Counted from the stretch's first letter, positions 3,104-57,935 are shown. The stretch: DNA of 64,000 nucleotides from Escherichia coli (GCF_022846255.1 NZ_AP025682.1), one strand, 5' to 3'. The notes: generated by a model from the sequence alone, not told the origin. Program-made: numbers and translations.

Positions 3104-4595
<1,492 letters not shown>

Positions 4596-4623: not shown

Positions 4624-5502
4624 TTACTGACTCGCCGCAGCCAACTCTTCTTCTGACACCCCGGTAAAACGCATGATGTCCGCAAGAGGGACTCCGGATT
4701 CAAGCATTATTTTTGCTATATGCAAGGCTTTGGATTGTTCCCCCTCTTGCCGCAATCTTTCCGCAATAGTCATTAAGCTCTCCTTGTGTTTCGGTGAATG
4801 TTCGGCAACGCCGTCGATAAAATCGTTAAAACGTACCGCATCGCCGGTTTGCAAGATGTAATTAAACAGCCCTTTGATTTGTCTGTCATTAGCGTATCCA
4901 CTACTTAATAAGCAGGCCATTTGCTCTACCAGTCCCATCAGATCGCGTTGACGAATATGTTTTTGAATTAACTCCAGCAGCGCCATACGTCGGTGCTGCA
5001 TGATTTCATCATCAGGCATGACGGTGACATCAATCAGCGGAAATGCGGAGGCATAAAGCTGCCTTGCCAGGTTGGGATCGGCGAAACAATCCAGCCAACA
5101 CAGTGAATAGGGATAGGGGCTTTCAATGCCGTGGTAAAACAACAATGGCACCACCATCGGCAATGTTTTGTATCCGGCATCCAGGTGATTTTGCATTGCG
5201 GCAATGGCGTAACGCATCATGCGAAATGCGATCAGTTTGTTTGAGGTGCTTTGATGTTCAATCAGACAATAGATGTATCCTGGCCCTTGTTCCGTTTTCA
5301 CCGACCACAGCACGTCGGAATAGCTTTCACGCAGATCGTCATCAATAAAGCTGCTCGACTCCAGCTTGAGGGTTTTCATATCACAGAGCGCGTGAATAGG
5401 TGCCGGTAAATGAAACGCAAGAAAATCGCGCGCCGTCTCCGGTTGGCGTAAAAAGAGTTTGAACAGCGCATCGTGTGGGGTGGAACTCTGCTTTTTGCTC
5501 AT
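4624..5502 (-). CDS. rpnA: recombination-promoting nuclease RpnA (YhgA, transposase-like)
   Basis: 292-aa ORF recognised as YhgA/RpnA family. Confidence 0.85.
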
Positions 5503-5704
5503 GGCGTTCCTTCACCTGTTGTTTGAATGCCGCGACTCTACGCACCACTCCACACCTGTGCATTAGCGAGTTTTCATCCCTGCGAGACGCTTTCAGAGGA
5601 ATTTACGTCGCGCTGCAAGGGTTGCATTTTTATGGAAAGCCGCACGCAAAAAAGCCCGGATGCAAACGCATACCGGGCTTTTCAAAACAGGTGATGGAGT
5701 ATGG

Positions 5705-5941
5705 TTAACGCAGCGCCCACCACTCGCGCAGGCAGGCTTTGCCTTCCGGGCAGCTTTTACAATTGCCAGAGAGGCAGCCGTCAGGTTCTTCCTGAATCCG
5801 CACGGCTTTGCCCATGCTTTCCAGCTGTTGCAGCATGGCGTTAATCATTGGCTGCGGGGTGTTCAATGTCTGGCTTATCTGGGCCGCTTCCATCCGGCCC
5901 CGTAACGCCAGCAAATCACGCACCTGAATAAGTGAAGCCAT
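5705..5941 (-). CDS. feoC: ferrous iron transport protein FeoC
   Basis: 78-aa product from ATG (MASLIQ) at 5939-5941; ORF-track start at 5950 is a TTG extension; Cys-rich C-terminus; start overlaps feoB stop. Confidence 0.85.
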
Positions 5942-8262
5942 TAATGGCAATCACCGGTGGTGCTGGCTGCGCAGCAACTGCTTACCGACTTGCGCGTTGC
6001 CAGCAGTTCGATATCCACCCGGCTACGCGCGCGACGCAGCAAACCGATAACCACGATGTTAAACAGGATAACCGCCAGAATGCACACCAGGCTGTAAGTT
6101 GGATGCTGGCTGTAGCTGGCGACCTGATAGAACAATGTTGCCAGTGAGTAAGCAATATTCAGCCCCCACAGGATGGAGAAGCCCATCCAGCCACGGCTTG
6201 ATTCACGCGCGATAGCCCCCATCACCGAGATGCACGGTACGTACAGCAGGACGAAAATCAGGTAGCTGTATGCGGCAGCTGCGCTACCGAATTTCTGATC
6301 CATCACGCCCATCGCCCCGGTACCCATTTCGCCGTCGCCTTTGCTGGCTTCAATGGGGTTCATCAGTACGCTAAGGCTGAAGGTGTCTTTCAGGCTCTGC
6401 CAGGTTTCATCTACCGCACTGAACAGCTCTTCACCGAGGTTAAATTCCGCCGGATTGAACTCTTCGTCCTGAATATTTTCTGCGGTGTAGAGGGTGTTGA
6501 GCGTACCCACCACCACTTCTTTCGCCATGGCACCTGTAAACAGGCCAACCGTTGCCTGCCAGTTATCTTCATGTACGCCAATCGGCTTGAAGACCGGGGT
6601 GATCACCCGGCTGACGGAAGCCAGCGCCGAGTCGTTGATGTTATCGACGATTTTTCCGCTCAGCGAGAAGCTGTTGAAGGCGCTCAGGAAAATGCTGACA
6701 ATGATAATCACTTTACCAGCACGCAGAACGAAGCCTTTCAGACGCTGCCAGGTCTGGATAACCAGGCTTTTAACGTGTGGTACATGGTAGACCGGCAGCT
6801 CCATGACAAACGGCGTCGCTTCACCGCGCATGATGGTGTACTTGAGCATCAGGCCCGTCAGCACCGCCATTACGATACCCAGCATATACAGCGAGAAGAC
6901 CGCCAGCGCACCGTTCTGCCCGAAGAAGGCAGCCGCGAATACTGCGAAGATAGCCAGACGCGCGCCGCAGGACATAAACGGTGCCATCATGATGGTCATC
7001 AGACGTTCACGCGGTGCATCAAGCGTACGTGCGCCCATTACCGACGGTACGTTACAACCGAAACCAACGATCAGCGGTACAAAGGATTTCCCCGGCAAGC
7101 CCAGCGCCTGCATCAGGCGGTCCATCACAAACGCCGCACGCGCCATATAGCCGGAGTCCTCAAGGAAGGAGAGGAACAGGTACATCATGCCGATCTGCGG
7201 CACCAGTGGCAGCACGGTGTTAATACCGCCACCCAGGCCCTGGGCGAGGAAGATAGTCAGCCAGTCCGGGAAGTGGAGCGTGTAGCCAATCCACTGAATA
7301 CCATGCACAAACAGCGCCACGGAACCGACATCAAACAGCGGCTGTAACGCCCCGCCGATGTTGATAGCCAGCAGGAACATCAGGTACATCACAAAGAGGA
7401 AAATCGGCAGACCGAGGAAACGGTTGAGCACGATTTTATCTACCGCAGTGGTGAAACGGCTGGGTTCTGCCGTCAGGGTGTTGCTTACCACATCACAGAT
7501 GGCAGCAATGCACTGGTAACGCGCATCGGCAATGTGCAGCGCCGGATCGTCCATCTCATTACGCAGACGGGCGAGGGCGGCATCCAGATGCTGCGACGCT
7601 TCACCGGCGTAGGCGCGGCTGTAGATATCGCCTTCCAGCATTTGCAGGCCCAGCCAGCGACGTTGTTTCAGCGGGATGTCGGAAGGCATCACTTTTGCCA
7701 GTGAATCTGCTTCGTTGAGTAGCGGCTGTGCGTAATGCACCAGTTCCACATTCTCGTTAGCTTTATAGCGATCAATCGCCAGCTTGAGCGCTTCAATACC
7801 GCGACCACGGGTTGAAACCAGCGGGATCACCGGGCAGCCAAGACGCGCCGACAGAGCATCAATTTCAATACGAATATTTTGCTTCTCGGCAATGTCGAGC
7901 ATGTTCAGTGCCACGATGCAGGGAATGCCGAGTTCCAACAGTTGCAGCGTCAGGTACAGGTTACGCTCAAGGTTAGACGCATCCACCACGTTAATCAGCA
8001 GGTCTGCGTCGCCACTCAAAATGTAGTGACAGGCGATTTGCTCATCGAGCGAGGTCTGCGATGAGATGGTGGTCAGAGAATAGGTGCCGGGCAGGTCCAC
8101 CAGCGTGACCTGATGATCGGTGGTGGAGAATTGCCCTTCTTTACGTTCGACGGTAACGCCAGCCCAGTTACCTACACGCTGACGTGAGCCAGTGAGCTGG
8201 TTAAATAACGTTGTCTTGCCAGAATTTGGATTACCAATTAAGCCAATGGTTAATTTTTTCAT
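5941..8262 (-). CDS. feoB: ferrous iron transporter FeoB (GTPase plus permease)
   Basis: 773-aa product from [18 protein letters not shown] (G1 GTPase motif) at 8262; ORF-track start extended by 4 codons. Confidence 0.93.
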
Positions 8263-23968: not shown

Positions 23969-26521
23969 TCAGAACAATTCCTGTGCCTCGCCATTATCGA
24001 TAATGGTCGTTCCCACCTCGTGCACCGCCTGTTGTGTCGGCTGCGTACCTTCGATGAAATACTCTTCGCGGCTGTTGCCACCATTAGCTAATTGCCCGGT
24101 GCTGCGATCGATATTCACCGTCACAATACCCGGTGGCGGCGTCAGCGGCTGCTCCGGCACACCTTCAAGAACGGCTTTCATATAAGCGTCCCATGCAGGC
24201 TGGGCACTCTTGGCACCGCCTTCGTAACCTGAGATCTGATCTTTAATCGCTCCGGAAGCCGTTGTATGACCGAGATTACGACGGTGATCATCAAAGCCAA
24301 TCCAGACCGAGGTCACAACGCCCGGACCGTAACCCGAGAACCACGCATCTTTCGAACTGTTAGTGGTACCCGTTTTTCCGCCTATATCATGCCGTTGTAA
24401 ATCACGACCTGCTCGCCAGCCAGTACCCTGCCAGCCTGGTTCACCAAAAATATTGGTGTTCAAGGCACTCTTAATCAGGAATGCCAGCGGAGTGTTGATG
24501 ACGTGCGGTGCGTACTCCTGCGCGCCGGTCTTCGCCACTAACGCCTGATTTGCCTGCTCCAGCTGCGGCATTGGTACAGAAACATTCTGCTGCTCGCGGG
24601 AGATAGCGACATCTTCAACATCGTTATTTTCCAGCACGTTCGATTTCTGCGTATCACCGTAAATCACCGGAATATCGCATTCCGGGCAGGCTACTTTCGG
24701 TTTCGCTTCGAAAATTACGCCGCCCTGATCGTTTTCAATTTTGCTGATAAACCACGGGTCCACCAGGAAGCCGCCGTTCGCCATGACCGCGTAGCCGCGC
24801 GCCACCTGCATTGGGGTGAAGGAAGCTGAACCCAGCGCCAGCGATTCGGTGTGGACAATGTTTTGTGCCGGGAAGCCGAAGCGTTGCAGATATTCTGCAG
24901 CGTAGTCGACGCCCATCGCCCGCATTGCGCGTACCATCACCACGTTTTTCGACTGACCCAGCCCCTGACGTAAGCGAATTGGACCGGCATACTGCGGTGG
25001 TGAGTTCTTCGGCTGCCAGTCAGAACCGGCACCTGCATCCCAGCGGGAAATTGGCACATCGTTCAACATACTTGCCAGCGTTAGACCTTTATCCATCGCC
25101 GCGGTGTAGAGGAACGGTTTGATGTTGGAACCCACCTGACGCAGTGCCTGGGTGGCGCGGTTAAACTTGCTCTGATTGAAATCAAAGCCACCGACCAGCG
25201 CCATAACGGCACCGTTTTGCGGATTGATCGACACCAGCGCCGAGTTCACTTCCGGCACTTGCGCCAGCCACCATGCATCGTCAACTTGACGAACCCAGAT
25301 TTGCTGACCCGTTTGCAGAACATCGGTCACTTTACGCGGCGTCGGTCCCTGCTGAGTATCCGAACGGTAAGGACGAGCCCAGCGAACACCTTCCATACTC
25401 AATACGACGGTCGACCCGTCTGCCAGCATCGCCGTCGCTCCCTGAGGATTGGCGCTGGTGACTGCGGCAGGCAGCAGCGGACCATAGGTCGGCAGCGCCT
25501 TCAGCGTATCGGTAATCTTGTTGTTATCCCACGCCGATTCGCCCACTTTCCACAGCACATTCGCCGGGCCGCGATAACCGTGGCGCATGTCGTAGTCCAG
25601 CACGTTATTACGTACCGCCTGCTGTGCGGCCTGCTGCACTTTTCGGGTGATGGTGGTGTAAATGCGATAACCGTCTTCATAGGCACTTTCGCCATAACGG
25701 TTATACATCTCCTGGCGCACCATTTCGCTCAGGTATGGCGCAGAGAAAGCAATCTCCGGCGCGTGATAGTTAGCGTTAATCGCCTCAGTGCGTGTCTGAT
25801 CGAACTGTTGTTGGGTGATATACCCTTCATCCAGCATCCGCGACAGCACGACGTTACGCCGCGCGACGGCACGATCCATTGAGTAGAGCGGGTTGAAGGT
25901 GGAAGGCGCTTTCGGCAGCCCGGCTATCACCGCCATTTCGTTCAACGTCAGTTGGTCGACCGTTTTACCGAAATAGACTTGTGCCGCAGCACCGACACCA
26001 TAGGCGCGGTAACCGAGGTAAATCTTGTTCAGATAAAGCTCGAGGATCTCGTCTTTCGTCAGCAACTGTTCAATGCGAATCGCGAGGAAGACTTCCTTAA
26101 TCTTGCGCATCAGCGTGCGTTCTGGACTGAGGAAGAAGTTTCTCGCCAGCTGCTGGGTAATGGTACTCGCCCCTTGTGACGCGTGACCGGAGAACAGCGC
26201 CACGCTTGCCGCACGGAAGATCCCCACCGGGTCAACGCCGTGATGCTCGTAGAAGCGGCTGTCTTCCGTCGCGATAAAGGCTTTCACCATCTCCGGCGGG
26301 ATTTGATCCAACGTAACCGGAATACGACGTTTCTCACCGTATTGAGCAATCAGCTCGCCATCGGCGCTGTAAATCTGCATCGGAATTTGCAGGCGAACAT
26401 CTTTTAATGTCGCCACATCCGGCAGTTGTGGCTCGATGTAGCGGTATAGGCCATAAATCGAGCCTGCTCCCAGCAGAATGCAACAGACTGCAAGGATCAA
26501 AAAATACTTTACGAACTTCAC
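23969..26521 (-). CDS. mrcA: penicillin-binding protein 1A (bifunctional transglycosylase/transpeptidase)
   Basis: 850 aa from GTG (MKFVKYFLILAV) at 26521, matching the remembered PBP1a length; an in-frame ATG 8 codons upstream at 26545 is the ORF-track start. Confidence 0.9.
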   Translation of the reverse strand: MKFVKYFLILAVCCILLGAGSIYGLYRYIEPQLPDVATLKDVRLQIPMQIYSADGELIAQYGEKRRIPVTLDQIPPEMVKAFIATEDSRFYEHHGVDPVGIFRAASVALFSGHASQGASTITQQLARNFFLSPERTLMRKIKEVFLAIRIEQLLTKDEILELYLNKIYLGYRAYGVGAAAQVYFGKTVDQLTLNEMAVIAGLPKAPSTFNPLYSMDRAVARRNVVLSRMLDEGYITQQQFDQTRTEAINANYHAPEIAFSAPYLSEMVRQEMYNRYGESAYEDGYRIYTTITRKVQQAAQQAVRNNVLDYDMRHGYRGPANVLWKVGESAWDNNKITDTLKALPTYGPLLPAAVTSANPQGATAMLADGSTVVLSMEGVRWARPYRSDTQQGPTPRKVTDVLQTGQQIWVRQVDDAWWLAQVPEVNSALVSINPQNGAVMALVGGFDFNQSKFNRATQALRQVGSNIKPFLYTAAMDKGLTLASMLNDVPISRWDAGAGSDWQPKNSPPQYAGPIRLRQGLGQSKNVVMVRAMRAMGVDYAAEYLQRFGFPAQNIVHTESLALGSASFTPMQVARGYAVMANGGFLVDPWFISKIENDQGGVIFEAKPKVACPECDIPVIYGDTQKSNVLENNDVEDVAISREQQNVSVPMPQLEQANQALVAKTGAQEYAPHVINTPLAFLIKSALNTNIFGEPGWQGTGWRAGRDLQRHDIGGKTGTTNSSKDAWFSGYGPGVVTSVWIGFDDHRRNLGHTTASGAIKDQISGYEGGAKSAQPAWDAYMKAVLEGVPEQPLTPPPGIVTVNIDRSTGQLANGGNSREEYFIEGTQPTQQAVHEVGTTIIDNGEAQELF

Positions 26522-26640
26522 TGGAAATTTCCCATTTAGTTTCATTTGGGCAGTTTATAAACAAACGCGCGGTAGTATAAAGGCAAGCCAGACGCATTGA
26601 TATACCTGTCAGAGTGACGGGTGATAAGGAGATCATCACA

Positions 26641-27420
26641 ATGGCATTTAAGAACTGGCAAATTGGTTTGCATTTACAACAGCAAGAAGCGGTAGCGGTT
26701 GCTATCGTGCGGAGCGCAAAAGAATGCTTATTGCACCGCTGGTGGCGGTTGCCACTGGAGAACGACATTATCAAAGATGGGCGGATTGTTGATGTGCAGC
26801 GGCTGGCTAACACGTTGTTACCGTGGAGTCGTGAACTGCCGCAGCGTCATCACATTATGTTGGCGTTTCCCGCCAGTCGCACATTACAGCGGTCATTTCC
26901 ACGCCCGTCGATGTCCCTCGGTGAGCGGGAGCAAATGGCCTGGCTGTCCGGGACGATGGCCCGTGAACTGGATATGGATCCGGACTCCCTGCGCTTCGAT
27001 TACAGCGAAGACTCACTCAGTCCCGCCTATAACGTGACTGCCGCGCAAAGCAAAGAGCTGGCAACGCTGCTTACTCTGGCAGAAAGGTTGCGTGTTCATG
27101 TTAGCGCGATCACTCCGGATGCCAGTGCATTACAGCGATTCCTGCCTTTTTTACCTTCTCATCAGCAATGTCTGGCCTGGCGTGATAACGAACAGTGGCT
27201 GTGGGCGACGCGCTATAGCTGGGGGCGCAAACTGGCGGTGGGGATGACTAGCGCGAAGGAGCTGGCGGCAGCGTTATCTGTTGATCCCGAAAGCGTCGCG
27301 CTATGTGGCGAAGGCGGATTTGACCCCTGGGAGGCGGTTTCTGTTCGTCAGCCGCCGCTACCGCCACCAGGTGGAGACTTTGCCATCGCGCTGGGGCTGG
27401 CGCTTGGGAAGGTGTACTGA
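26641..27420 (+). CDS. hofM: PilM-like type IV pilus/DNA-utilisation assembly protein HofM
   Basis: 259 aa from ATG (MAFKNWQIGLHLQ) at 26641; first gene of hofMNOPQ. Confidence 0.85.
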   Translation: MAFKNWQIGLHLQQQEAVAVAIVRSAKECLLHRWWRLPLENDIIKDGRIVDVQRLANTLLPWSRELPQRHHIMLAFPASRTLQRSFPRPSMSLGEREQMAWLSGTMARELDMDPDSLRFDYSEDSLSPAYNVTAAQSKELATLLTLAERLRVHVSAITPDASALQRFLPFLPSHQQCLAWRDNEQWLWATRYSWGRKLAVGMTSAKELAAALSVDPESVALCGEGGFDPWEAVSVRQPPLPPPGGDFAIALGLALGKVY

Positions 27421-27959
27421 TGAACCCGCCAATTAATTTTTTGCCCTGGCGACAGCAACGCCGGACTGCTTTTCTTCGTTTCTGGTTGCTGATGTTCGTT
27501 GCGCCTCTGCTGCTGGCCGTCGGGATAACGCTAATACTGCGTCTGACAAGCAATGCCGAAGCACGCGTAAACGCCGTTTTGCTTCAGGCGGAACAACAAC
27601 TCGCCCGCAGCTTACAGATAACGAAACCACGTTTGCTGGAACGCCAGCAGTTACGCGAACAGCGTTTGCAACGGCAGCGCCAACGACAATTTACCCGCGA
27701 CTGGCAATCTGCGCTGGAAGCACTGGCGGCGCTTTTACCCGAACATGCCTGGCTGACAACGATAAGCTGGCAGCAGGGAACGCTGGAGATCAAGGGGCTG
27801 ACAACAAGCATTGCCGCGTTAAACGCGCTGGAAACGTCACTCCGCCAGGATGCTTCTTTTCATCTCAATCAGCGGGGGGCCACGCAGCAGGATGCGCAGG
27901 GACGCTGGCAATTTGAGTATCAGTTAACAAGGAAGGTTAGCGATGAACATGTTCTTTGA
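27420..27959 (+). CDS. hofN: PilN-like protein HofN
   Basis: 179-aa ORF with N-terminal TM segment; start overlaps hofM stop. Confidence 0.85.
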   Translation: MNPPINFLPWRQQRRTAFLRFWLLMFVAPLLLAVGITLILRLTSNAEARVNAVLLQAEQQLARSLQITKPRLLERQQLREQRLQRQRQRQFTRDWQSALEALAALLPEHAWLTTISWQQGTLEIKGLTTSIAALNALETSLRQDASFHLNQRGATQQDAQGRWQFEYQLTRKVSDEHVL

Positions 27960-28383
27960 CTGGTGGTTCGCCACATCACTCCGCCTCCGCCAGTTTTGCT
28001 GGGCAGTCTGGTTGCTGGTGTTAGTTACGCTCATTTTTCTGTCATTGACACACCATGAAGAGAGCGATGCATTAATTCGACTACGGGCAAATCATCACCA
28101 GCAGTGGGCTGCACTGTATCGCCTGGTAGACACCACTTCCTTCAGCGAAGAAAAAACGCTGCCCTTTTCGCCACTGGATTTTCAGTTATCCGGCGCGCAA
28201 CTGGTTTACTGGCATCCATCCGCGCAGGGAGGTGAGTTGGCGTTGAAAACGCTGTGGGAAGCAGTGCCGTCGGCATTTACACGGCTGGCAGAGCGCAACG
28301 TCAGCGTGAGCCGTTTTTTGTTAAGCGTGGAAGGTGATGACCTTTTGTTCACGCTACAACTGGAGACGCCGCATGAGGGTTAA
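27943..28383 (+). CDS. hofO: PilO-like protein HofO
   Basis: 146-aa ORF with N-terminal TM segment; overlaps hofN end. Confidence 0.82.
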   Translation: MNMFFDWWFATSLRLRQFCWAVWLLVLVTLIFLSLTHHEESDALIRLRANHHQQWAALYRLVDTTSFSEEKTLPFSPLDFQLSGAQLVYWHPSAQGGELALKTLWEAVPSAFTRLAERNVSVSRFLLSVEGDDLLFTLQLETPHEG

Positions 28384-28777
28384 ACGCTGGTTGTTGGCAG
28401 GCATTGCATTGTGCCTTTTAACCGGTATGCGTGACCCTTTTAAACCGCCGGAAGATCTATGCCGGATTAGCGAACTTAGCCAGTGGCGCTATCAGGGGAT
28501 GGTAGGGAGAGGCGAGCGCATCATCGGTGTAATAAAAGATGGGCAAAAAAAATGGCGACGGGTGCAGCAAAACGATGTGCTGGAAAACGGCTGGACGATC
28601 TTACAGCTGACGCCAGACGCACTAACGCTGGGAACCGGGACAAACTGCGAACCGCCACACTGGTTGTGGCAACGGCAAGGAGATACAAATGAAGCAATGG
28701 ATAGCCGCACTACTGTTGATGCTTATACCCGGCGTACAGGCGGCAAAGCCGCAAAAAGTGACGCTGATGGTGGATGA
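28373..28777 (+). CDS. hofP: PilP-like lipoprotein HofP
   Basis: 134 aa from ATG (MRVKRWLLAGIALCLLTGM) at 28373; lipoprotein-like signal; ORF-track start extended by 13 codons. Confidence 0.8.
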   Translation: MRVKRWLLAGIALCLLTGMRDPFKPPEDLCRISELSQWRYQGMVGRGERIIGVIKDGQKKWRRVQQNDVLENGWTILQLTPDALTLGTGTNCEPPHWLWQRQGDTNEAMDSRTTVDAYTRRTGGKAAKSDADGG

Positions 28778-29927
28778 CGTTCCGGTAGCTCAGGTGTTGC
28801 AGGCGCTGGCTGAACAGGAGAAGTTGAACCTGGTGGTTTCGCCAGACGTCAGCGGTACGGTGTCGTTACATTTAACTGACGTTCCCTGGAAGCAGGCACT
28901 ACAAACTGTAGTGAAAAGCGCCGGATTGATAACGCGCCAGGAGGGCAACATTCTCTCGGTGCATTCCGTTGCCTGGCAGAATGACAATATCGCCCGCCAG
29001 GAGGCGGAGCAGACGCGGGCGCAGGCAAATCTGCCGCTGGAAAATCGCAATATTACTCTGCAATACGCCGACGCCGGAGAGCTGGCGAAAGCGGGGGAGA
29101 AGCTACTGAGTGCCAAAGGGAGTATGACCGTCGATAAACGCACCAATCGCCTTTTGCTGCGAGATAACAAAACGGCGTTAAGCACGCTTGAACAGTGGGT
29201 ATCGCAAATGGATCTGCCGGTCGGGCAGGTTGAGCTGTCGGCGCATATTGTCACCATTAATGAAAAAAGTTTGCGTGAGTTAGGTGTGAAATGGACGTTG
29301 GCCGATGCGCAACAAGGTGGTGGCGTTGGGCAAGTCACCACGCTTGGCAGCGACCTCTCCGTAGCGACGGCGACAACGCATATCGGTTTTAACATTGGAC
29401 GCATCAACGGACGTTTACTGGATCTTGAGCTTTCCGCGCTCGAACAAAAACAGCAGCTGGATATTATCGCCAGTCCGCGTCTGCTGGCCTCACATCTTCA
29501 GCCTGCCAGCATTAAACAGGGGAGCGAAATTCCATATCAGGTTTCCAGCGGGGAAAGTGGCGCGACGTCGGTAGAATTTAAAGAGGCCGTCCTGGGGATG
29601 GAAGTCACGCCCACGGTGTTACAAAAAGGTCGCATCCGGCTGAAATTACACATCAGCCAGAACGTTCCGGGGCAGGTGCTACAGCAGGCCGATGGCGAAG
29701 TGTTGGCGATTGATAAGCAGGAGATCGAAACGCAGGTCGAGGTCAAAAGCGGAGAAACGTTGGCGCTGGGCGGCATTTTTACCCGTAAAAATAAATCGGG
29801 TCAGGATAGCGTACCGTTGCTTGGCGACATTCCCTGGTTCGGGCAATTATTTCGTCATGACGGAAAAGAAGATGAACGACGCGAGTTAGTGGTGTTTATC
29901 ACGCCACGACTGGTTTCCAGTGAGTAA
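28689..29927 (+). CDS. hofQ: secretin HofQ (PilQ/ComE-like outer membrane channel)
   Basis: 412-aa ORF with signal peptide and secretin C-domain; 5' end overlaps hofP by 89 nt. Confidence 0.9.
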   Translation: MKQWIAALLLMLIPGVQAAKPQKVTLMVDDVPVAQVLQALAEQEKLNLVVSPDVSGTVSLHLTDVPWKQALQTVVKSAGLITRQEGNILSVHSVAWQNDNIARQEAEQTRAQANLPLENRNITLQYADAGELAKAGEKLLSAKGSMTVDKRTNRLLLRDNKTALSTLEQWVSQMDLPVGQVELSAHIVTINEKSLRELGVKWTLADAQQGGGVGQVTTLGSDLSVATATTHIGFNIGRINGRLLDLELSALEQKQQLDIIASPRLLASHLQPASIKQGSEIPYQVSSGESGATSVEFKEAVLGMEVTPTVLQKGRIRLKLHISQNVPGQVLQQADGEVLAIDKQEIETQVEVKSGETLALGGIFTRKNKSGQDSVPLLGDIPWFGQLFRHDGKEDERRELVVFITPRLVSSE

Positions 29928-30327
29928 ACAGCCGTAAAAGCGGTAATGTTTTTACGCTGAACGTGTTTCATCTATTTGACGCGCGCAGGTATTTAGCATA
30001 CAAGGAGTACCGATTTGAGAGTTGGTGCTCTTCGCTGCCTGCGTTCCATGATGATGATTTATCATTCAGGCGGCATTTTGCTGTCTTTTTTACGCTAATC
30101 TTACCCGGTGATTTATCGCCAGAGCGGTGGTAGCAAGGCAGCGCGCTTGCAGCGACCAGATATGCAGAGGGATGGGTGATTTATTCAGTTGCCAAACCCG
30201 CTGGAGTATTGAGATAATTTTCAGTCTGACTCTCGCAATATCTTATGAGGTTTCAGTTCATGTCCTGCGGCGCTCTCTGAGCGAAGCGGGTTTATCATTA
30301 ACGAATAGTCTTAGTAGTACCGAAAAA

Positions 30328-57302: not shown

Positions 57303-57935
57303 TTAACGAGTGCCGTAAACGACGATGGTTTTACCGTGTGCGGAGATCAGGTTCTGATCTTCCAGCATCTTCAGAATGCGCCCCACTGTTTCACGAGAAC
57401 AGCCGACAATCTGACCGATTTCCTGACGGGTAATTTTGATTTGCATACCGTCCGGGTGAGTCATAGCATCCGGTTGTTTTGCCAGATTCAGCAGAGTCTG
57501 TGCAATGCGGCCCGTCACGTCGAGGAACGCCAGGTTGCCCACTTTCTCTGAAGTGACTTGCAGACGACGCGCCATCTGTGCAGACAGACGCATCAGAATG
57601 TCCGGGTTTACCTGAATCAATTGGCGAAATTTTTTGTACGAAATTTCAGCCACTTCACAGGCGGTTTTCGCACGTACCCATGCGCTACGTTCCTGGCCCT
57701 CTTCAAACAGGCCCAGTTCGCCAATAAAATCACCCTGATTCAGATAGGAGAGGATCATTTCTTTACCCTCTTCGTCTTTGATCAGCACTGCCACAGAGCC
57801 TTTAACGATGTAGTACAGCGTTTCCGCTTTTTCACCCTGGTGAATAAGCGTGCTCTTGGATGGGTACTTATGAATGTGGCAATGAGACAAGAACCATTCG
57901 AGAGTCGGGTCTGTTTGCGGTTTGCCAAGCACCAT
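57303..57935 (-). CDS. crp: cAMP receptor protein
   Basis: 210-aa ORF; cNMP-binding domain plus C-terminal HTH ([20 protein letters not shown]). Confidence 0.97.

Follow-up and report, generated by a model that had tools for sequence, protein, structure and literature searches.

The hofP/hofQ overlap of the Escherichia coli hofMNOPQ operon: a probable case of a disordered tail overprinted on a signal-peptide region

The last two genes of the Escherichia coli hofMNOPQ operon are annotated with an overlap of 89 nt in different reading frames, and this raises the question of why two co-directional genes should share so long a stretch of DNA. A preliminary description of the locus offered two answers: that the overlap implies tight translational coupling, or that the hofQ start has been mis-assigned. 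Here we present an analysis of the locus within a 64,000-nucleotide stretch of E. coli DNA (GCF_022846255.1, NZ_AP025682.1; hereafter the window, with positions counted from its first letter). We argue that a third reading is better than either of these, namely that the signal-peptide region of hofQ, flexible in composition, has a disordered C-terminal HofP tail overprinted on it. The whole account, comprising the hofMNOPQ operon, an ancestral overlap, a hofQ start of its own and an overprinted HofP tail, is on sequence evidence probably correct. A literature search found no paper treating hofP, hofQ and their overlap together.

The hofMNOPQ operon and its relatives

The locus, the hofMNOPQ operon for DNA uptake in E. 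coli, is already well known, and textbook annotation gives its gene order and overlaps. All five ORFs are intact, co-directional on the + strand and adjacent, in the order M-N-O-P-Q. The first, hofM (26641-27420, delimited by its ORF, start and RefSeq annotation), encodes a cytoplasmic PilM-like component of 259 aa, and shares a TGATG with hofN (27420-27959), which encodes a bitopic inner-membrane protein of 179 aa with a PilN domain. These are followed by hofO (27943-28383; a HofO/EpsM-like protein of 146 aa), the hofP ORF (28373-28777) and hofQ (28689-29927), the product of which is an outer-membrane secretin of 412 aa with STN/N0, Secretin_N and Secretin domains. Both the ORF coordinates and RefSeq confirm the junction overlaps reported earlier, 1 nt for hofM/hofN, 17 nt for hofN/hofO, 11 nt for hofO/hofP and 89 nt for hofP/hofQ, and RefSeq/PGAP gives identical genes and overlaps for a strain of 99.8% identity and for one of K-12 type. 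Of 5426 complete E. coli genomes, 5425 carry the locus, and both the gene order and the mrcA...aroK synteny are kept in about 85 loci. Of 76 loci, 60 have a hofM/hofN junction of 1 or 4 nt and 46 a hofN/hofO junction of 17 nt; these two and the hofO/hofP overlap are ordinary operon junctions that would be compatible with translational coupling.

The PilMNOPQ sets of Pseudomonas aeruginosa, Myxococcus xanthus and Neisseria likewise consist of five co-directional genes in this order, and the proposed correspondence of the five genes to these sets stands, with support of different depth for each protein. HofQ is covered over residues 1-412 of 412 by the NCBIfam HofQ model PRK10560 (854 bits; cutoff 598), passes the PilQ model TIGR02515 (446 bits; cutoff 284) and exceeds the cutoffs of the Pfam Secretin, Secretin_N and STN families; against the PDB it matches PilQ 6w6m (E = 3.6e-74, alignment from residue 23), although at 412 aa it is shorter than the matched PDB PilQ chains (571-901 residues). 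HofN carries the Pfam PilN domain (PF05137, 40.3 bits; cutoff 22.8), and HofO matches PF25319, the Pfam 'HofO EspM-like domain' (85.4 bits). In contrast to their PilMNOPQ counterparts, HofM and HofP are far more divergent, falling below curated sequence cutoffs. HofM scores 16.9 bits against the PilM model TIGR01175, below its curated cutoff of 133, has a weak T2SSL match and nothing else in Pfam, and finds Myxococcus PilM as its best PDB profile match, weakly (E = 0.003, residues 6-170). The kinship of HofP lies in its predicted fold, as described below.

By analogy, HofM, HofN, HofO and HofP would form the inner-membrane alignment subcomplex, and HofQ the outer-membrane secretin, of a type IV pilus or DNA-uptake machine. 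We know of no natural competence of E. coli under laboratory conditions. The annotated neighbourhood of hofMNOPQ contains neither a pilin nor a pilus-ATPase gene, which agrees with the earlier suggestion of a machinery split across loci.

Upstream, the published yrfD (hofM) promoter fragment lies at 26365-26490, within the 5' coding region of mrcA, a divergent gene, and the EMSA primers of Cameron and Redfield (2006) map exactly to 26365-26384 and 26469-26490. Two CRP-S sites were predicted in this fragment, to which CRP bound weakly, and induction by Sxy was 16-fold (PMC1635313). Candidate positions for the CRP-S-like 16-mers are 26376-26391 and 26457-26472; the two TGCGA-N6-TCGCA-like cores are weak, each with mismatches at 3 of 10 positions. 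The operon is poorly transcribed unless Sxy and cAMP-CRP act at the upstream CRP-S sites, and yrfD-hofQ has been treated as the orthologue of comABCDE (comA-E) of Haemophilus influenzae, with two CRP-S sites predicted in Enterobacteriaceae versus one in Pasteurellaceae (PMC1635313). Furthermore, Sxy-dependent DNA uptake requires hofQ (PMC3330819).

The HofP core and the hofQ start site

Codons 1-105 of hofP (28373-28688, + strand) encode a conserved core, which consists of a signal sequence and a PilP/HR-type beta-sandwich and terminates in CEPxxWxW-Q-R-Q-G. HofP matches Pfam PF10748 with 260 bits, AlphaFold models residues 31-100 with a pLDDT of 89-95, and pN/pS in the core is 0.15-0.37. Sequence-only searches for PilP are weak (E = 0.08 for the HofP profile against PilP in the PDB), so the kinship of HofP was taken from structure prediction: the top 13 Foldseek matches of the core in the PDB are all PilP or GspC/PulC/LspC HR domains, and the predicted core superposes on the latter with TM 0.69-0.74 (target-normalised). 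HofP is therefore predicted to have a PilP/GspC-HR fold in its core. GspC-type HR domains dock onto secretin N0 domains, and GspC proteins run on into PDZ or coiled-coil domains, whereas in HofP the HR-type core is followed by a short tail predicted to be disordered. Cysteines C30 and C92 are invariant among 38 aligned HofP sequences. Neisseria PilP is a lipoprotein, and Pseudomonas PilP entries in the PDB are titled 'lipoprotein PilP'; in contrast, no conserved cysteine that could serve a lipobox follows the signal sequence in the 38 aligned HofP sequences, where the conserved junction reads ...L-T-G-M-R-D-P-F and Cys14 of E. coli is not conserved.

Immediately past the core, the start of hofQ is well supported by the sequence: initiation at ATG 28689 would proceed from a strong, unstructured Shine-Dalgarno of its own, AAGGAG at 28677-28682 (+), 6 nt 5' of the ATG. 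The Shine-Dalgarno also contributes to the conserved R-Q-G codons of HofP; the predicted RNA fold leaves it unpaired, and it is kept across loci as a motif of the AAGGAG/GAAGGA type. The first codons of hofQ encode a signal peptide (28689-28742, +; MKQWIAALLLMLIPGVQA) that is present at all loci for which the hofQ start was mapped, start and signal peptide alike being conserved over about 85 loci; cleavage is predicted at VQA|A, which would leave AKPQKVTL at the mature N-terminus. A mis-assigned start, with HofQ initiating 3' of the hofP stop and the long overlap disappearing, draws on precedent, in that most annotated overlaps of more than 60 bp between co-directional genes have been judged start-codon errors (Palleja et al. 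2008, PMC2478687). Here, however, the hofQ frame offers no start past the hofP stop before GTG 28794 (codon 36), an unlikely start because its use would delete the signal peptide required by a secretin and would truncate the N0 domain. The homology of HofQ to a solved PilQ also starts at residue 23, which places it upstream of the hofP stop (codon 30). Taken with the Shine-Dalgarno at its 6-nt spacing, the conserved signal peptide and the PRK10560 match over the full length, these observations leave the mis-assigned start with a negligible probability; we consider it effectively refuted, and the hofQ start should stay as annotated, with no re-annotation to abolish the overlap.

The other proposal was that the overlap exists for tight translational coupling of hofP to hofQ, either through termination-reinitiation or through ribosomes that unmask the hofQ ribosome-binding site. 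It has some attraction: PilP binds the N0 domain of PilQ and the two interact stoichiometrically in homologous machines, the remaining junctions of the operon overlap by the short lengths usual for coupled genes, and ribosomes on hofP must traverse the hofQ initiation region. The geometry is unfavourable, however. In native E. coli pairs, reinitiation loses 80-100% of its level when 38 nt separate the two genes (PMC10666635); here the hofP stop lies downstream of the hofQ start by 89 nt, and the overlap ranges from 4 to 140 nt among lineages, including classes of 38 and 62 nt. No RNA structure that would mask the hofQ start was found: the local fold is no better than that of shuffled sequences (z = -0.39), with Shine-Dalgarno and AUG unpaired, and a consensus of 18 species shows neither RNA structure nor covariation at the initiation region. 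With hofQ equipped with a strong Shine-Dalgarno of its own, tight termination-reinitiation coupling at this junction is unlikely, and we give coupling as the reason for the 89-nt overlap little credence.

The overlap and its codon composition

We return to the reading that the overlap carries two overprinted segments. In the hofQ frame, the region 28689-28777 (+) encodes the signal peptide and the first 11-12 mature residues; in the hofP frame it encodes the tail, i.e. the last 29 residues (codons 106-134), and the stop. According to the proposed mechanism, ribosomes on hofP would run through the hofQ initiation region and the signal-peptide codons in the other frame, and this read-on would extend the PilP-like core by about 29 residues that are predicted to form a disordered tail. 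Translation would end at TGA (28775-28777), which is made by HofQ Asp29-Asp30 (GAT GAC) within the Val-Asp-Asp codons of a conserved V-D-D motif that opens the HofQ N0 domain. The hofP frame would be cheaply held open because a stop requires that a hofQ codon ending in T precede a codon for Lys, Asn, Ser, Arg, Asp or Glu, a combination rare in a hydrophobic signal peptide.

With hofP ends taken strictly from ORFs, 71 of 82 Enterobacteriaceae loci have an overlap of 77-140 nt, typically 80-92 nt, and Pantoea, Cedecea and other relatives one of 50-83 nt. The survey spans the HofP Pfam family; the best 120 matches listed by a word-indexed profile search were all Enterobacteriaceae, and the outgroup loci (Pantoea, Cedecea and others) were drawn from an exhaustive search of representatives. 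Protein lengths are 130-138 aa for HofP and about 409-412 aa for HofQ across genera, so that the pair shows the orthologue-consistent lengths and cross-genus overlap by which Palleja et al. (2008) recognised genuine overlaps. From this comparison, we take the 89-nt overlap to be real and ancestral. The overlap itself is conserved across genera; the hofP-frame tail cannot be aligned between them.

The tail is rich in Gly, Ala, Arg and Asp, has an AlphaFold pLDDT below 50 and contains no conserved columns. Its pN/pS in its own frame is 1-2.5, without a conventional signal of purifying selection; pN/pS in the hofQ frame of the overlap is 0.5-0.7. Eleven of the 82 loci are without the long overlap (in ten the tail is shortened or missing, and in one hofP is truncated), and the tail would for this reason be dispensable at least in part. 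Since it is unalignable between genera and shortened in some lineages, it probably has no sequence-specific role.

Probable selection on the hofP frame shows in a different place, the synonymous third positions of hofQ codons. In the overlap, T occupies 5.7% of these positions and the ratio matched for amino acids is 0.35; ten control segments give 16-27% and 0.87-1.23, respectively. The deficit depends on the residue that HofP would receive: observed/expected ratios are 0.05 for Cys (5 observed, 97.6 expected), 0.16 for Tyr, 0.22 for Trp, 0.27 for stop and 0.74 for Ser, while the same ratios in the rest of hofQ are 0.78-1.44. The T-ending hofQ codons that give HofP Cys, Tyr, Trp or a stop are depleted 4-20-fold, and only where hofP is translated; relative to expectation, T stands at 0.28 at hofP-translated sites, at 0.74 at untranslated sites of the same region (p = 0.003) and at 1.0 in the rest of hofQ. 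The ratio is below 1 in 28 of 30 clades (sign test p = 9e-7). Also, 61 of 66 loci (92%) use the stop-forming GAT, against a baseline of 65% (p = 3e-7; p = 0.007 at genus level), where it must be borne in mind that the loci are phylogenetically related, so that pooled counts overstate significance and clade-level tests are weaker. The cross-genus conservation of the overlap and the frame-specific codon bias exceed chance. Because T is purged where it would give HofP a Cys, Tyr, Trp or stop, the tail is probably made, and we infer from codon composition that selection acts through the hofP frame; it would keep the HofP tail harmless, soluble and periplasmic.

Two other signals were considered and set aside. 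Synonymous diversity of hofQ is lower in the overlap (0.32-0.68 of the rest), which might be read as dual constraint; it is not diagnostic because the non-overlapped mrcA, aroK and aroB show a 5'-end reduction equal to or stronger than that of hofQ. Stops in the hofP frame number 12 against 37.8 expected, but stop-specific selection was rejected: T-ending codons are equally rare at sites where no stop is at risk, which points to a general avoidance of TNN codons.

Two readings of the tail compete with this one. The tail could be a purely neutral by-product, its frame open merely since signal-peptide codons cannot form stops. The length of 89 nt by itself is indeed not improbable: with the HofQ protein fixed, 70% of synonymous recodings keep the frame free of stops for 89 nt or more (median 89). 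The lack of alignability, the predicted disorder, the truncations in several clades and a pN/pS of at least 1 also fit a neutral tail. What it does not lead one to expect is a depletion so specific to residues, with Cys almost eliminated and Ser nearly untouched, that is absent from this frame elsewhere in hofQ and from the other hydrophobic segments of the operon, and that relaxes downstream of early hofP stops; the excess of stop-forming GAT is likewise unexplained. We therefore regard a purely neutral tail as unlikely. At the other extreme, a specific function, e.g., contact with HofQ, peptidoglycan or DNA, could maintain the overlap, as might be suggested by the similar length and composition of the tail from Escherichia to Pantoea, the depletion of stops and the retention of the end point. 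Against this, no residues or motifs are conserved beyond those imposed by the hofQ Shine-Dalgarno and start, the tail is predicted to be disordered and has been lost or shortened repeatedly, and avoidance of harmful residues is the simpler explanation for a constraint on composition only; a specific function is thus decidedly improbable. It is reasonably probable that a dual-coding region of about 90 nt has been conserved since ancient times, with selection on the tail visible solely as avoidance of Cys, aromatic residues and stops at hofQ synonymous sites.

Overlapping genes and signal-peptide regions

A close parallel is holD/rimI (PMC2478687), likewise a co-directional overlap conserved across enterobacterial genera in which the C-terminus of the upstream product and the N-terminus of the downstream product are both retained. 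It spans 32-56 bp, in contrast to the typical 80-92 nt and maximum of 140 nt of hofP/hofQ, which differs further in pairing a signal peptide in one frame with a disordered tail in the other, both under low constraint. The hofP/hofQ pair is missing from the tables and supplement of Palleja et al. 2008 (PMC2478687), probably due to the restriction of that study to gene pairs with KEGG pathway assignments.

The operon is a known one and the new detail is modest; pilus and competence biology are unaffected by it. For the study of overlapping genes, hofP/hofQ is a conserved exception to the working rule by which a co-directional overlap of more than 60 bp counts as an annotation error. It also indicates that codon composition can reveal selection on a second frame where dN/dS is uninformative, and that a signal-peptide region can carry such a frame almost free of cost. 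If the account given here is true, the overlap would be a clean natural case of two low-complexity segments overprinted at little cost.

The hof operon and its surroundings

The window is E. coli chromosomal DNA. Of 5426 complete E. coli genomes, 5425 contain a match to positions 26400-30200, with identities of 95-99.8%. A script check found five intact plus-strand ORFs, hofM (26641-27420), hofN (27420-27959), hofO (27943-28383), hofP (28373-28777) and hofQ (28689-29927), with overlaps of exactly 1, 17, 11 and 89 nt at the successive junctions. Since the RefSeq/PGAP annotations of a 99.8%-identical strain and of a K-12-type strain give the same genes and overlaps, the layout of five co-directional genes in the preliminary description is correct and standard annotation, and its reading of this already known operon holds. 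Annotated overlaps elsewhere in the neighbourhood are 1-11 nt, against which the 89 nt shared by hofP and hofQ are conspicuous.

HofQ is a secretin: the Pfam Secretin, Secretin_N and STN domains each exceeded cutoff, the TIGR02515 PilQ model scored 446 bits (cutoff 284), the HofQ model matched end to end (residues 1-412 of 412), and the best solved relative is the PilQ-family secretin 6w6m (E = 3.6e-74). A Pfam PilN domain is present in HofN, and HofO is matched by the HofO family of Pfam. Neither HofP nor HofM passes the curated PilP and PilM models, their sequences having diverged too far; the best PDB profile match of HofM is Myxococcus PilM (E = 0.003). AlphaFold, given 38 orthologues, models HofP with a beta-sandwich core at high confidence (pLDDT 89-95 at residues 31-100). 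When this model was compared with the PDB, the top 13 matches were without exception PilP proteins or GspC/PulC/LspC HR domains. Unlike PilP lipoproteins, which have a lipobox cysteine, HofP has no conserved lipobox cysteine in its alignment, and, as judged from sequence, it may reside in the periplasm in soluble or signal-anchored form instead of as a lipoprotein. A conserved L-T-G-M-R-D-P-F junction follows the hydrophobic segment at its N-terminus (28373-28440). In the core, the C30/C92 pair is invariant and probably forms a disulfide.

The hof genes evolve fast: HofP of E. coli and E. fergusonii are only 63% identical (82-92% within other Escherichia), and pN/pS is 0.15-0.37 for the HofP core versus 0.04-0.13 for HofQ. 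In a single genome, E. coli CNR20180903 (4.28-Mb chromosome, locus 5326-8042), hofQ ends at ~111 nt and adjoins a truncated barA pseudogene, a large deletion or rearrangement in which the secretin was lost.

As had been claimed, the annotated neighbourhood contains no pilin or pilus-ATPase gene. The window is nevertheless not without other competence-related genes, because it holds crp (57303-57935, minus strand), whose product regulates the hofM promoter together with Sxy, and gntX (3104-3787, minus strand), a comF homologue annotated as 'DNA utilization protein GntX'. Two CRP-S sites were predicted in the yrfD (hofM) promoter, a fragment of which showed weak CRP binding and 16-fold, CRP-dependent induction by Sxy (PMC1635313), and Sxy-dependent DNA uptake requires hofQ (PMC3330819). 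We placed the published fragment at 26365-26490, within the mrcA coding region. The first 29 codons of mrcA (26459-26545, minus strand) have almost no synonymous diversity, with pS of 0.000 versus 0.185 for the rest of the gene in Escherichia, 0.046 versus 0.523 in Citrobacter and 0.000 versus 0.382 in Enterobacter; as this stretch abuts or overlaps the CRP-S fragment, a regulatory element within the mrcA 5' coding sequence is possible. Synonymous diversity is similarly low in the first 29 codons of aroK. Also in the window, a full-length 292-aa Rpn-family ORF (recombination-promoting nuclease/putative transposase; 4624-5502, minus strand) is replaced at this position by only a partial pseudogene in the closest complete genome, strain A37, where collinearity is shifted beside bioH and gntX.

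Initiation of hofQ

Two explanations had been offered for the overlap (28689-28777), a mis-assigned hofQ start or tight translational coupling. The former is countered by an AAGGAG 6 nt upstream of the ATG at 28689 and by the canonical signal peptide that follows it (MKQWIAALLLMLIPGVQA, followed by A); start, Shine-Dalgarno sequence and signal peptide all have counterparts in the 80 species-level Enterobacteriaceae loci fetched and in six more distant loci. Past the hofP stop, hofQ has no in-frame start before GTG 28794 (codon 36), and initiation there would remove the signal peptide. Moreover, HofQ aligns with solved PilQ from residue 23 onwards and hofP does not stop until hofQ codon 30, further downstream, so some overlap would exist under any hofQ start. 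By these sequence features and their conservation, the annotated start stands. Tight coupling is likewise poorly supported and unlikely: in native E. coli gene pairs, a 38-nt intergenic distance cuts reinitiation by 80-100% (PMC10666635), and no masking structure was seen, as the predicted fold of the hofQ initiation region is no more stable than that of shuffled sequence (z = -0.39) and leaves SD and AUG unpaired, and an 18-species alignment of the region revealed neither consensus structure nor covariation. Ordinary coupling would fit the other three junctions (1, 17 and 11 nt), all of which are conserved.

Conservation of the overlap

Among 82 loci with strictly mapped ORF ends, the overlap is 89 nt in 39, 92 nt in 10, 86 nt in eight, 80 nt in five, 83 nt in three, 98 nt and 122 nt in two each, and 140 nt and 77 nt in one each; it is 62-65 nt in five, 38 nt in three (Phytobacter/Kosakonia) and 4 nt in two metagenome-assembled genomes, and one locus, from E. 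albertii, has an apparent hofP pseudogene. In the latter (NBRC 107761, type strain), hofP stops prematurely after 33 codons and hofQ is intact. The 4-nt junction is an ATGA in the other frame, with the tail entirely absent, and represents either a real short-junction variant or an assembly frameshift error; a cultured Leclercia has 86 nt. Outside the family, the mrcA-hofMNOPQ-aroK-aroB synteny is kept, with overlaps of 68 nt in Cedecea, 80 and 74-83 nt in Pantoea, and 50 to about 70 nt in further lineages. The HofP family is narrow (only 177 clusters at 50% identity), and the arrangement is ancestral to it. In the set of Palleja et al., every one of the 715 co-directional overlaps >60 bp was ruled an error, and holD/rimI (32-56 bp) was the longest accepted as real; that set was limited to gene pairs with KEGG assignments, and hofP/hofQ is absent from their tables (PMC2478687). 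We conclude that the 89-nt hofP/hofQ overlap is real and ancient.

The HofP tail and probable selection in two frames

The conserved HofP core ends in CEPxxWxW-Q-R-Q/E-G, of which the R-Q-G codons are also the hofQ Shine-Dalgarno sequence. Beyond it, the tail of ~29 residues has no conserved columns between genera and is composed of 18% Gly, 16% Ala, 11% Arg and 10% Asp. In the HofP model, pLDDT falls below 50 only at residues 107-134; the hofQ ATG lies within hofP codon 106, by which the overlap would encode a disordered tail. A stop in the hofP frame requires a T-ending hofQ codon followed by one starting AA, AG or GA, combinations rare in a hydrophobic signal peptide. When the window's hofQ was synonymously recoded, 70% of trials left 89 nt or more of the hofP frame open (median exactly 89). 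The usual stop is formed from the conserved Val-Asp-Asp codons (GTG GAT GAY) with which the HofQ N-terminal (N0) domain begins.

Conventional measures say no to selection on the tail (pN/pS 1-2.5, versus 0.15-0.37 for the core). Low synonymous diversity of hofQ in the overlap was rejected as a signal of tail selection, because the 5' portions of mrcA, aroK and aroB are reduced at least as much. Codon composition does carry a signal tied to the frame. Within the overlap, 5.7% of hofQ codons have T at position 3 (hofP position 1), versus 16-27% in ten control segments, among them the hofM 5' end and the hydrophobic stretches of hofN, hofO and hofP; the amino-acid-matched ratios are 0.35 and 0.87-1.23, respectively. 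Sorted by would-be HofP residue, depletion is strongest for Cys (5 observed versus 97.6 expected; 0.05), followed by Tyr (0.16), Trp (0.22), stop (0.27), Leu (0.35), Phe (0.60) and Ser (0.74), while the same-frame reading of the rest of hofQ gives 0.78-1.44. The ratio is below 1 in 28 of 30 clades and, within the same region, is 0.28 where the hofP frame is translated versus 0.74 where an early hofP stop leaves it untranslated (Fisher p = 0.003). Also, 61 of 66 loci carry the GAT that creates the stop, against 65% at baseline (p = 3e-7; p = 0.007 at genus level), although pooled p-values are optimistic as the loci are related by descent. The simplest reading is that the tail would be made and kept clear of cysteines, aromatics and further extension, its sequence otherwise being free.

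The best explanation of the overlap is thus that the signal-peptide region of hofQ has been overprinted with a disordered HofP tail. Such a tail would be cheap to keep and weakly policed by selection, and the codon-composition evidence for dual-frame selection adds a modest new detail.
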